NCBI GenBank assembly: GCA_963713605.1 | Contig: CAVQMO010000001.1 | Span: 704,001 to 768,000 of the forward strand | From: an uncultured Nitrososphaerales archaeon | Lineage (GTDB): Archaea; Thermoproteota; Nitrososphaeria; Nitrososphaerales; Nitrososphaeraceae | DNA length: 64,000 nucleotides | Reading direction: 5' to 3' | In this document: positions 2,950-7,916 of the stretch, one piece after another | Numbering within the stretch: the first letter of the stretch is position 1 | How the letters are laid out: every line of letters begins with the position of its first letter | Notes under the pieces: generated by a model | Database searches by the model: none | The model's input: only the letters and a program-made list of their open reading frames with translations | What the model was told of the DNA's origin: nothing | Position numbers and translations under genes: made by a program

Positions 2950-3125
2950 TGGCCAGAAATACCTGTAGGAAATCCCAAATAATTTTCGATACGTGAGCTT
3001 GAACATGCTTGACCACCAGGGGAACTTGTCTCGAGCACTAGGACATCTAGTCCTTCTGAAGCGGCATATACTTCGGCCGCCAATCATGAGGGACCAGCTC
3101 CGATGATTACAAGATCCCGAACATG
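2950..3125 (-). pseudogene. fragment of thioredoxin-reductase-like FAD oxidoreductase
   Basis: [55 protein letters not shown]; in-frame stop, truncated after the GGQ..IENY.GF motif. Confidence 0.8.
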
Positions 3126-3295
3126 GGTTTGATCGATAGACACTATTTTATTTAACACTATCGCTAAAGATATCTCAAAAGCGAACATAAATAGAATTTT
3201 ATAAATACTATAGCTGGGAAACAGGGAGGATAGCTCTGAATATCTATAGAAGTGTTTAATAGCAACCATTCCAAATCAAATACTGATCGGATGAA

Positions 3296-3583
3296 TTGAC
3301 TTTTTCTGATAGGCTAAATAAGGTTAAAGGTGAGATTCCATTTGCACTCACCGTAGTTCAAGATTGGCAATTAACTGAAGAAGATGCCGAGGTTCTACAA
3401 AAACGTGTTAATACGTGGGCGAAATTAAATCAGATAGTCCCTGATCAGGTTTGCTCGAAATACCTTAGTAGACCATTAGGAAGGATTCGACGTCCCTAGC
3501 CTATAAATCAATCATCTTCACCCACATTACCACAATGGCTGGGGTCTGATGATAAAGATATTCTAAAAATTGGGATTTTGTAG
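3296..3583 (+). CDS. putative ATP-grasp RiPP (graspetide) precursor peptide; ORF stops at 3499 as assembled, likely extends to 3583
   Basis: Short ORF directly upstream of the ligase with a PFAL leader-like motif. The same frame is open after the TAG until 3583 (..SSSPTLPQWLGSDDKDILKIGIL*). An overlapping frame encodes FTHITTMAG up to a GGGG run just before SDDKD. Confidence 0.6.
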
Positions 3584-3601
3584 GGTTCGTGTGTTTTTAT
3601 A

Positions 3602-4555
3602 ATGGTTAGAGATAAGGTATTGATTGTTTCTTCTGGTGACGACGAACACAGTAACGTAATATCACAATGGCTTAGGAAAGAGAATCTAGCCGATCCTGTC
3701 CTATTTAATTTTCACGATTTTCCTTTAAGTGCACAAATGACATATCACAATGAACATGGGTCGAGTCTTGTCATCCCAGGATTTGGAACACTAAAAGAGG
3801 ACCAAATTGCAGGAGTTTGGTGGCGTAGGCCGCAAAAATTCTCCTTTGAAAAAAGTATAGTTGATCCTAAAGTGAAAAGATTCTGTGAAGTAAATTGCCA
3901 ACATGCCATACAAGGATTTTTTGAAATTCTCGGAGACCGAGTAGTAGACCCTCCTTTTCGTATTCTAGCTGCTGATAGGAAACTGTTTCAGTTACACATA
4001 GCACAGCGCTGCGATCTCAAAGTTCCCTCTACATGTGCGACTAATGATCCGGCTGTTGCTCGCGACTTCATTGACTCACAATCCGACGGTGTCATATATA
4101 AGATCTTTCGAGAAACTACCAATTTTGTAACTGGGACAACGCTGCTAAAACCCACAGAGTTAGATAACTTACATATGCTTCGCCACAGCCCAGTAATTTT
4201 TCAACAATTCATAGAACCAGATTTCGATATTCGAATTACGATAGTAGGAAAGGATATCTTTTCAGCCAAGCTCACTTCCAGCAAACCAGATGGTAGAGTA
4301 GATATTCGGAAGGACGCTGTTTGCGAAGCTGAACCCTATGAACTACCTCAAGATATAGAACAAAAAATACGAAGGCTCATCTCTATAGTAGGACTGAGAT
4401 ACGCTGCTATTGATATGCGCACGAATAAAAAGGGTGAACATTATTTCCTTGAAATTAATCCTGTCGCTCAATACCTTTTCGTAGAAGTAGCTACCAATCA
4501 ACCAATCACCCGAACACTCGCACGGCTGTTGGCAGACCCCGTAAGTTCTAAATGA
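3602..4555 (+). CDS. MvdC/MvdD-family ATP-grasp peptide ligase (graspetide synthetase)
   Basis: VLIVS..D.H N-terminus, VWWRRP, A..KL.QL..A....L.VP.T..TNDP, IYK, P.IFQQFI...DIR.T.VG, DIR (DWR position), GL.Y.AID, FLEINP..Q.LF.E. Confidence 0.9.
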   Translation: MVRDKVLIVSSGDDEHSNVISQWLRKENLADPVLFNFHDFPLSAQMTYHNEHGSSLVIPGFGTLKEDQIAGVWWRRPQKFSFEKSIVDPKVKRFCEVNCQHAIQGFFEILGDRVVDPPFRILAADRKLFQLHIAQRCDLKVPSTCATNDPAVARDFIDSQSDGVIYKIFRETTNFVTGTTLLKPTELDNLHMLRHSPVIFQQFIEPDFDIRITIVGKDIFSAKLTSSKPDGRVDIRKDAVCEAEPYELPQDIEQKIRRLISIVGLRYAAIDMRTNKKGEHYFLEINPVAQYLFVEVATNQPITRTLARLLADPVSSK

Positions 4556-4625: not shown

Positions 4626-4865
4626 TTATAGTTGTTGAACGATTAGTTTGGAATGTTGCAAAATCCATTTGTATTCGCTCAAAGTATCATATATGAAGCC
4701 ATCATCTGGTCTGCAAAATTGATGATAAAATGTATTCGTTTGACCGTTTTCACCTTGGGCAACGTATAAGTGATCTGGACATCCCCATTCTTTACATTTA
4801 TTGCACTTGTGAAATTCATTGGATTTGTCAAACTCATGACACCTCGGCTCTCGACACTTAGCCAT
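4626..4865 (-). CDS. small Cys/His-rich zinc-finger protein (AN1-like spacing)
   Basis: C-x4-C-x11-C-x2-C-x4-C-x2-H-x15-H-x2-C. Confidence 0.65.
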   Translation of the reverse strand: MAKCREPRCHEFDKSNEFHKCNKCKEWGCPDHLYVAQGENGQTNTFYHQFCRPDDGFIYDTLSEYKWILQHSKLIVQQL

Positions 4866-4958
4866 ACAATCAGACTAGCCTGACTCTACTTTTGAATGGA
4901 TTGATTTGAGAAGGTACACACATTAGACCGGAATTTCACTATAAAATACATTATAAAA

Positions 4959-5014
4959 TAACAGCCGGTAACAGTGTGTAACAATAATCATTATGGCTGT
5001 AACAAGTGATAACA
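4959..5014. promoter_or_regulatory. five helically phased TAACA direct repeats
   Basis: TAACA at 4959, 4969, 4979, 5000, 5010 (spacing 10,10,21,10), between two divergent genes. Confidence 0.55.
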
Positions 5015-5051
5015 GATCGAAAAAGCTAAGAGTAGCTGTTTCCCAATTAAA

Positions 5052-5723
5052 TTGTACAGATTTATGCAAGCGTTACTGAATAAGAAAGAGAAAGATGAGT
5101 TAGCGATCCAGCTCTATCAAGAAGGTAAGTCCATGCGAGAGATTGCTCAACAATCTCATCTGTCATTCGGAACTATAGGTAAGATCATTAGACGATTTAA
5201 TGGGCTTGATAATAGTCAAACTCTACCAAGTGATATGAGCAATAAGTCTAAACAAACTCAAGCTTTATTTCTATTCGCACAAGGCAAGCGTCCAATTGAT
5301 GTTGCTGTAGAATTAGATCTTTCATCCAGCGAAGTAGAGAATAAATTACAAGAGTTTTGGATATTGAACAATCTAGACGAACTTGCATGTATATACCTTT
5401 GTCCAGATAATCTTGATCTGTTTCTTCAACTATTTCACATAATGAAGCAAAATAAACTGTTTAATCAGAAAGATATTAAAACTGTGATGAAATATGCTCG
5501 TGATTTACCATCTTTGGAGAACAAATTCCGTGATATTGCAAACACAGTATTAGATCTAGAAATTAAGAAAAAAGAATTGACTGCTCAACTATTAGATCTT
5601 AAATATGTCATAAACCAATACCAAAATGCTATTGATATGAAGAGAGAAAGGCTGTCTAAGATGGAGTCTTCTATGTCACAACTAGCCATCCGCTGTGGTA
5701 AACGAAGGTCAGAGAAGACTTAA
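5052..5723 (+). CDS. double helix-turn-helix + coiled-coil hypothetical protein
   Basis: LYQEGKSMREIAQQSHLSFGTIGKII and LFAQGKRPIDVAVELDLSSSEV HTHs, C-terminal heptad pattern; true start may be ATG 5064. Confidence 0.8.
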   Translation: MYRFMQALLNKKEKDELAIQLYQEGKSMREIAQQSHLSFGTIGKIIRRFNGLDNSQTLPSDMSNKSKQTQALFLFAQGKRPIDVAVELDLSSSEVENKLQEFWILNNLDELACIYLCPDNLDLFLQLFHIMKQNKLFNQKDIKTVMKYARDLPSLENKFRDIANTVLDLEIKKKELTAQLLDLKYVINQYQNAIDMKRERLSKMESSMSQLAIRCGKRRSEKT

Positions 5724-6114
5724 AAGTGAAATCATTGCCATGTCTCAATCACAGGCTACAAATTGCAGCTGCATTTTCTCTCCAGTTAATTATCGAAAAG
5801 ATATAACATAAATCTGAATTAATCCAGACAAGATTTGTAGTCAAATAGGAGCTTGAAGAAGAAAATTGATTAGCTCTCAAGGTGTCGGATTTAGCATGCT
5901 AACTGCGGTTCTAATGCTATCCATGATTATGCTAGTTACGACTGATGAGTTCACAGCGAGTTAGCAACTAATGGACCTCCACTATCAGATAGACAACCAA
6001 TAGCAATATAATGAAGATATTCAAATTGGATGTTAGATTGTGTAATCGCTAGGGGAACGGTTTATAACAGAGGCATTATCGCCGACTTACCTTAAGACAA
6101 CACTATTAATTATA

Positions 6115-7463: not shown

Positions 7464-7916
7464 ATGGTGAGGAAAAATGCTATCAATAAATATAAACTGC
7501 CAGTACCGAAAGATCAGTTACAGCGTATTGACAGAACTTCATCGCCAGCTCATTTGGGCAAACTTCGAAACGCCATTGATCTTTTAGTTGATAAAGATAC
7601 GCCCGTTCTTGCCGCAGCCGACGGAATAGTGACTTTTGTTAAAGATATCTCTGACATCGGAGGACCTAATCCAGCATATTGGGAGTATACAAACTTTATT
7701 GTAATTATGCACTCAAATGGAGAATACTCACGTTACGATCATTTAAGCTACAATAGTTCAATGGTGAAAGTTGGTCAACGTGTCAGAGCAGGCGAAGAGA
7801 TAGCTAAGGTTGGAATGACTGGTTACACATATCTACCACACCTTCATTTCCAGGTTTTTGTGATTAGTGGAATTAATATGTGGACAGACTTCGATACTGT
7901 AAAAGTTCGATTTTAA
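7464..7916 (+). CDS. M23-family metallopeptidase (catalytic domain only)
   Basis: H...NAID, TPVLAAADGIV, YSRYDHL, VKVGQRVRAGE.IAKVG.TG....PHLHF. Confidence 0.9.
   Translation: MVRKNAINKYKLPVPKDQLQRIDRTSSPAHLGKLRNAIDLLVDKDTPVLAAADGIVTFVKDISDIGGPNPAYWEYTNFIVIMHSNGEYSRYDHLSYNSSMVKVGQRVRAGEEIAKVGMTGYTYLPHLHFQVFVISGINMWTDFDTVKVRF

Follow-up and report, generated by a model that had tools for sequence, protein, structure and literature searches.

Graspetide synthetases act by phosphorylating the side chain of an Asp or Glu residue, which is then attacked by a Ser, Thr or Lys, and the cores of characterised graspetides put the donor residue first. Among described systems, those of the microviridins and chryseoviridins (MdnB/MdnC, that is MvdC/MvdD, as well as AMdnB and CdnC; 5IG8, 5IG9, 7M4S and 7MGV) provide the best structural matches to the ligase reported here, with E values from 1e-28 to 1e-34. 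The plesiocin synthetase PsnB (7DRM) is distant (E 2e-15); it has a hydrophobic leader pocket beside the ATP-binding Lys, and its Arg213 and DFR loop are critical (bioRxiv 10.1101/2021.03.09.434688). A further group, Branch 7 of Makarova et al. (2022), includes members from Burkholderia stagnalis and Anaeromyxobacteraceae, and that paper (PMC8939145) predicted no precursors for it.

Archaeal ligases, including those of Thaumarchaeota archaeon MY3 and Nitrosopumilus salaria, are tabulated in the supplements of the same paper (PMC8939145), and Nitrososphaerota ligase-precursor pairs in a second table (PMC13097080). The predicted clusters in these two sources include ones from Methanoculleus, Methanolacinia, Nitrososphaera sp., Nitrosopumilus sp. 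and a Nitrososphaeraceae archaeon; their precursors belong to families (group 7, NHLP-like and others) different from the one described below, and we saw no experimental data for the archaeal entries in the parts consulted. Literature searches for graspetides with archaea returned no paper titled on an archaeal graspetide, and none at all came up for microviridins, graspetides or RiPPs in general in Nitrososphaera, in Thaumarchaeota or in ammonia-oxidizing archaea. A preliminary description of this DNA had called characterised graspetides bacterial; our searches found no report of a characterised archaeal one, but predicted archaeal clusters, Nitrososphaerota included, were already tabulated. 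Modified peptides are hardly known from soil ammonia oxidisers, and the cassette that we describe is small, self-contained and apparently transcribed in soil.

Layout of the cassette and its neighbours

The window, a stretch of 64,000 nucleotides, corresponds to C1:704001-768000 of a 4.09 Mb genome that is 87% complete and encodes an archaeal amoA on another contig (C10). The cassette, which we compare with the related loci L002 and L007, contains the following features.

3215 to 3295, + strand: conserved left end of the cassette with a TATA-like box at about 3255-3261; near-perfect identity to L007 begins at about 3215
3296 to 3499, + strand: gene of a 67-aa peptide with a TTG start (7.8 kDa, pI 9.4), recognised by its open reading frame, selection, homologues and RNA contigs
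3332 to 3349, + strand: leader motif E-I-P-F-A-L, peptide residues 13-18, inside the invariant run G12-L26
3377 to 3427, + strand: alpha-helix predicted by AlphaFold2, residues 28-44
3413 to 3496, + strand: putative core, residues 40-67, with donors T40, K43, S54, K55 and S58, the acid D50 and a basic tail
3500 to 3601, + strand: indel-tolerant spacer of 102 nt, with 4-nt and 2-nt indels relative to L002 and L007
3602 to 4555, + strand: 317-aa ATP-grasp ligase of the graspetide-synthetase class, ATG start, open frame without stops

The cassette is shared with L007 from about 3215 to the ligase stop codon, which marks the end of similarity to both L002 and L007; the left flanks differ among all three loci, and the right flank of the window is unlike those of the other two. 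The TATA-like box may serve as the promoter, a role that we assume from the usual features of archaeal promoters. Just before the peptide gene lies a micro-ORF of three codons (ATG-Asn-stop, 3291-3299), kept in L007, whose stop overlaps the TTG start and which could have a role in re-initiation or damping of translation. A non-coding RNA or terminator in the spacer was considered and rejected, as 3500-3601 has no Rfam match and no significant fold (z -0.39, with all folding z-scores between -0.6 and +0.2).

Mobile relics had been proposed around the cassette, of which the TrxB-like fragment stands: at 2950-3140 (-), it has an internal stop and shares 80% and 78% nucleotide identity with two paralogues in the genome. 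The proposed IS5 fragment was not confirmed: five IS5/DDE models gave zero matches in the genome and no transposase was found among 28 open frames near the cassette. The mobile-like neighbours, rather than IS5, are the region of a 223-aa ORF with HTH and coiled-coil segments (4931-5723, +), the 5' region of which has about nine dispersed relatives in the genome at 65-75% identity, and a second multi-copy element starting near 6061. A search for terminal repeats or target duplications flanking the cassette gave nothing beyond short repeats expected by chance.

In line with the earlier remark that no dedicated protease, transporter or methyltransferase is adjacent, the scanned neighbours of the cassette include no transporter or methyltransferase, and a search of the 87%-complete genome for C39 peptidases came out empty. 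Past the TrxB relic and outside the part shared with L002 and L007, there is a SnoaL-like ester cyclase at 2468-2890 (-; PF07366, E 1e-29), while a 79-aa Cys/His-rich ORF at 4626-4865 (-), without an NCBIfam match, is convergent on the ligase. A stand-alone M23-family peptidase domain at 7464-7916 (+), 2.9 kb downstream of the ligase, also lies outside the shared cassette; its best matches are peptidoglycan endopeptidases, all far below the cut-off.

The ligase among ATP-grasp enzymes

The ligase is intact and carries the motifs previously named for it, VWWRRP at residues 72-77, TNDP at 147-150, DIR at 209-211 and 234-236, and FLEINP..Q.LF.E at 282-295, with the correction that its N-terminal motif reads VLIVS...D.H, one residue longer than described. 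It is the sole match in the genome to PF21068, the MvdD pre-ATP-grasp domain (34.8 bits against a gathering threshold of 27), and its matches to solved structures at E<=1e-3 are ATP-grasp ligases in six of six cases (titles CdnC, AMdnB, MvdD-like or ATP-grasp), headed by CdnC (E 3e-34) and 5IG9 (E 1e-33). K127, K167, R211, D234-I-R236, D271, E284 and N286 are all retained. R211 and D234-I-R236, the counterparts of PsnB Arg213 and DFR as read from motif offsets, are invariant in 13 of 13 close ligases; by these offsets, the two enzymes share an acid-binding Arg and D-x-R loop and, as predicted, a hydrophobic leader pocket beside the ATP-binding Lys. The remaining kept residues (two Lys, Asp and E-x-N) presumably take part in nucleotide/metal and core binding. 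Selection has acted on the gene, with a dN/dS of 0.24 against L007 and 0.22 against L002.

Against NCBIfam models, the ligase scores 180 bits with TIGR04187, 167.6 with MvdD, 160.2 with MvdC, 49 with RimK, 34 with MptN and 32 with LysX, all below the cut-offs (475 for MvdD, 425 for MvdC, 143 for RimK, 350 for MptN and 276 for LysX). Two trees were built, a quick one of 94 rows and a careful one of a 38-row subset without long and redundant rows. In the latter, support of 100/100 places the ligase among the graspetide synthetases and separates it from E. coli RimK, three LysX-like proteins and an MptN-like protein, although the outgroup join lies between long branches and the MptN-like row is itself below the MptN cut-off; the quick tree shows the same separation from RimK, MptN-like and LysX proteins. 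Thus, comparison with RimK, LysX and MptN models and phylogeny, a check of the kind that the preliminary description had called for, supports membership of the graspetide-synthetase class and, through low family scores together with the 100/100 separation, refutes a placement with RimK, LysX or MptN. The host encodes its own LysX elsewhere in the genome.

Of the earlier MvdC/MvdD-type label, the class is therefore kept while orthology is not, the ligase reaching about one third of the two equivalog cut-offs and lying on a branch separate from Nostoc MvdC/MvdD in the 38-row tree. Like microviridin systems, the locus has the MvdD pre-ATP-grasp domain, a PF-type leader and a putative precursor gene directly upstream of the ligase. 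Unlike them, it has a single ligase with D-I-R instead of D-W-R, PFAL in place of PFFARFL, neither a TxKxPSD core nor a GG site, and no ABC transporter or C39 peptidase; with the microviridin core missing, nothing points towards a microviridin-like protease inhibitor.

The ligase forms a clade of ten rows (100/99) with L002, a Nitrososphaeraceae genome whose ligase is 96% identical, and with metagenomic proteins of 51-63% identity; only two other loci of this clade came with genomic context. The clade joins a group that contains the Burkholderia stagnalis and Anaeromyxobacteraceae ligases (97 SH-aLRT with 94 rows, 96/66 unstarred with 38 rows), the Burkholderia protein being about 36% identical. 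The enzyme is neither MvdC nor MvdD itself and appears to lie near Branch 7, a link made through organism names and through the YscW-like neighbour, of a kind named in the paper, of one member of the adjoining group, rather than through the sequences of that paper. It belongs to a sister clade of the likely Branch 7 members, has no adjacent peptidase or YscW gene and does have a candidate precursor.

The peptide, its predicted complex and a possible ring

The short co-oriented PFAL-containing ORF reported upstream of the ligase is present and is a real gene under purifying selection. Of the codon changes that separate it from L007, 7 are synonymous and 5 non-synonymous (dN/dS ~0.21; binomial p 0.008), while the same test gives 1 and 12 in the two other plus frames and 3/9, 5/8 and 0/13 in the three minus frames. 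The indels relative to L007 fall solely behind its stop, and an in-frame stop lies three codons upstream of it in both the window and L007. Databases hold nine homologues in three clusters, 77-97% identical, the genomic context being known for L007 alone. In the ten sequences, including that of the window, the run G12-L26, K43 and D50 are invariant; T40 is replaced by S in three of ten, V52 by D in three of ten and in two RNA contigs, and T40 and S58 swap only with the other hydroxyl residue (T40/S, S58/T). Eight of the nine homologues keep the C-terminal end and a length of 66-69 aa, and one is frame-shifted.

PFAL occupies residues 15-18, and the peptide has both a Phhx(1,2)h leader and the adjacent location by which encoded precursors are recognised. 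Among 17,210 random ORFs of 40-100 aa from this genome, PF followed by two hydrophobic residues occurs within the first 30 residues in 118 (0.7%), whereas 13% contain Phhx(1,2)h, a less strict motif. Each of the three RNA runs examined, out of six and all from different studies, has a contig of about 200 nt on the peptide ORF (3314-3501, 3306-3501 and 3333-3528), a placement with a chance of about 0.004 if contigs fell uniformly. One of these runs also has a ligase contig; the lack of contigs over most of the ligase was given no weight. These contigs give a hint only of transcription in soil, because they indicate neither strand nor level and may include DNA carry-over.

Several other candidates were tried and rejected. 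An extension of the peptide by read-through or frameshift into a T...SDDxD segment behind the TAG is incompatible with L002 and L007, in which the 4-nt and 2-nt indels break the frame while the stop is kept. A search for a longer fused precursor gave none at E<=10 among 2778 candidates, which is weak evidence, and a match of the peptide to NCBIfam at E 0.055 was taken as chance. Searches of the Protein Atlas returned no usable match for the peptide and, for the upstream ORF of locus L008 (see below), only signal-peptide-like leads under 0.9, and 43 pattern matches in viral contigs yielded none confirmed. The motifs of the peptide are absent from the 20,891 rows examined of the PMC13097080 table. 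As far as searched, the precursor family of the 67-aa peptide is undescribed, and it is atypical.

Possible donors past the leader are T19, T27, K36, T40, K43, S54, K55 and S58, and possible acids D23, E28-D30, E32 and D50, the last 35 residues holding one acid and a basic tail. None of six graspetide core patterns tried on the peptide gave a match, a GG-type site is absent and, unlike the PsnB system, there are no repeated cores. Donors and acceptors are conserved but none stands out, since the homologues are too close (87% column identity) for particular core residues to be singled out; residues 40-67 would form the core. AlphaFold2 gives the peptide alone a mean pLDDT of 53, with 19 of 67 residues at 70-90 and a helix at 28-44.

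When both proteins were supplied as alignments, the model of the complex reached a median score of 0.74 over three runs, the best of three controls standing at 0.00, and passed a mark that 116 of 157 solved complexes but only 2 of 215 mismatched pairs pass; since solved ligase-leader complexes exist, this may mirror likeness to them. The runs share at least 67% of their contacts, with partner pLDDT of at least 64. The modelled interface, of 83-132 contacts across peptide residues 13-60, includes peptide 13-20 and ligase 166-198, a segment that matches the PsnB leader pocket by motif offset. In keeping with the proposal of a PF-type leader for this ligase, the peptide is predicted to bind with PFAL in the leader pocket. 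In the surest contacts, ligase 239-240 and 295-303 pair with the helix (30-45) and ligase 15-26 with residues 45-50 of the peptide, with its residues 54-60 lying on the enzyme; K127, R211, D271, E284, N286 and peptide K43 are all missing from the confident contacts.

Taken together, ligase and peptide are a real and probably functional graspetide-class pair, and we lean towards the peptide being the substrate that the ligase cyclises. Starting from two genes that are both real and under selection, the leader would dock where the strand and helix that follow K167 make a pocket, as suggested by the model and by comparison with MdnC and PsnB. By analogy with the class chemistry, ATP would then phosphorylate a side-chain carboxylate held by R211, and a Ser, Thr or Lys would attack it, producing one side-chain ring, or at most a few, in the C-terminal half of the peptide. 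In the preferred ring, K43 (or T/S40) would be linked to D50, so that the helix end is stapled to the loop behind it, and relatives bearing D52 might form a second, nested ring from T/S40 to D52. These pairings are drawn from conservation, being favoured because known cores are donor-first, K43 and D50 are invariant and V52D would complete a hairpin of the form T/S-x-x-K ... D-x-D. Nearly as open is an acid-first ring, in which D50 or E28-E32 would be joined to S54, K55 or S58, since the model has residues 54-60 resting on the enzyme but leaves K43 out. As no dedicated protease or exporter is present, the product would remain full-length in the cell or be trimmed by housekeeping proteases.

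It is conceivable, though rather doubtful, that the clade departs further from described graspetides, either stapling a folded helical protein acid-first with the leader kept, or using the 67-aa protein as a trans-acting activator for other proteins. The acid-first form would link Asp50 or Glu28-32 to Ser54, Lys55 or Ser58, possibly with a natural Cys53 thioester. Either a stapled helical protein or a trans activator would be unlike any described graspetide; the chemistry itself is most likely of a known kind. If the peptide is cyclised, it would be the first archaeal example, the substrate for an uncharacterised ligase clade and a helical core unlike the patterns tested; if acid-first stapling or activation holds, it would be the first assigned partner near Branch 7 and the first working archaeal graspetide-class enzyme.

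Distribution, competing explanations and related loci

Graspetide-class ligases of any kind were found in 30 of 238 genomes of the family; in samples of 401 genomes each, the order gave 21 and the phylum 4. The peptide was found in only two of the 238. L007 shares peptide and ligase; in L002, the second of these genomes, the ligase is intact and the peptide gene has lost the 5' half that bears the leader. Among the 15 listed members of the 90% identity cluster of the ligase, eight are full length (one being that of the window) and the others are truncated or frame-shifted, possibly through assembly error in some; two of those that are not full length stop at one and the same Trp, and a deletion of 27 residues is common to two further relatives. 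Rarity, broken copies and dN/dS together indicate an accessory cassette that is often lost, yet selected where intact. A single clade of the 11 ammonia-oxidiser rows, a group picked after the first tree, was rejected (p-AU 1e-9). By their sequences, the graspetide-class ligases of ammonia-oxidising archaea fit several separate gains, which is the wider result of this analysis, and the patchy distribution and polyphyly fit the earlier suggestion that the pathway was acquired. That this cassette was gained separately from the other such ligases of these archaea, and is now being lost in some strains, seems to us reasonably probable. A signal of recent transfer was sought and rejected, as the ligase is host-like in composition: its GC content is 41%, and among 1000 long ORFs its codon index ranks at the 26th percentile, neither of them anomalous.

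The sister locus L008, the only distant one with genomic context, has 51% GC and a ligase of 54% identity; the ORF upstream of it (64-876) encodes 270 aa with E-V-P-F-A-L, a twin-arginine-like signal, an uncharacterised middle domain and three Cys in its tail, without a Pfam match; these features suggest Tat export of a modified protein. Homology between the peptide and this ORF past the leader looks good by eye but fails shuffling and was rejected: 619 of 5000 shuffles reach its score, as do 1501 of 5000 for the whole peptide, and a TgmA control did better by chance (4/1000).

A second ligase family of ammonia-oxidising archaea (L018-L034, L036-L038 and L041; 365-400 aa), found in 19 of 34 genomes of genus g11 and a few others, has its N-terminus extended by about 40 residues together with a motif resembling a PF-type leader, and may represent a natural leader-fused ligase. 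In most of its loci, the 700 nt upstream contain no precursor, but a small NHLP-like ORF is present in L018 and L037. For Thaumarchaeota archaeon MY3, PMC8939145 lists a 369-aa ligase that has a dodecin and a response regulator as neighbours.

Rather than the substrate, the 67-aa protein might be an activating subunit that wraps the ligase with its leader and helix and switches it on, some other protein, whole or as an excised peptide, being the real substrate; we regard this as unlikely. Its large predicted interface, running over residues 13-60, would suit such a role, as would a poor core that leaves six patterns unmatched and has no GG site, and the leader-fused family offers a parallel in cis, mostly with no precursor beside it. 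The literature also lends it some precedent, since no precursors were found for Branch 7, whose substrates are proposed to be cut from other proteins (PMC8939145), and partner-dependent synthetases exist (PMC13097080). Against this, the position, size, leader and RNA cover of the peptide are those of a precursor, its hydroxyl residues are exchanged conservatively, the long upstream ORF of L008 combines the same leader with a Tat-like signal as an exported substrate would, and no second candidate substrate was seen.

Less likely still, the cassette would be a relic in decay: active in the past, perhaps with a longer precursor, it would have stayed intact here by chance and make no product now. 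Its presence in 2 of 238 family genomes, one of them broken, would fit decay, together with the many shortened ligase copies, the non-ATG start of the peptide, the adjoining broken TrxB fragment, the want of a protease or exporter and the 270-aa precursor of the sister locus; yet dN/dS is about 0.2 in both genes, all catalytic residues are kept, RNA contigs come from three studies, eight of nine homologues retain the C-terminal end at 66-69 aa and, as weaker evidence, no longer form was found. As for a housekeeping amino-acid ligase of the RimK/LysX/CofF type beside an unrelated ORF, some databases do name close relatives 'glutathione synthase/RimK-type ligase-like' and weak RimK-family scores exist, but these are three- to fivefold below those of the graspetide models, and the 100/100 tree split, the separate LysX gene, the patchy distribution and the passing complex model with the peptide make this reading highly improbable.

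Additional loci broaden the picture beyond the cassette. Near Branch 7 ligases, upstream ORFs with a PF-[VI]-[ML]-[AS]-TPH leader occur in L016 (2502-3479, -), L043 (2-298, +) and L015 (1023-1322, +), and may be candidate precursors for the surroundings of Branch 7; the L016 ORF encodes 325 aa and bears repeats, the start of the L016 ligase may need checking, and L043 has a YscW-like neighbour. In other Thermoproteota, conventional precursors were seen, with group-7-type cores in L035 (1251-1478) and L069 (1216-1461) and a tandem of two short PF-L-W-type precursors in L017 (1185-1498); peptides of these kinds are already listed in the PMC13097080 table.
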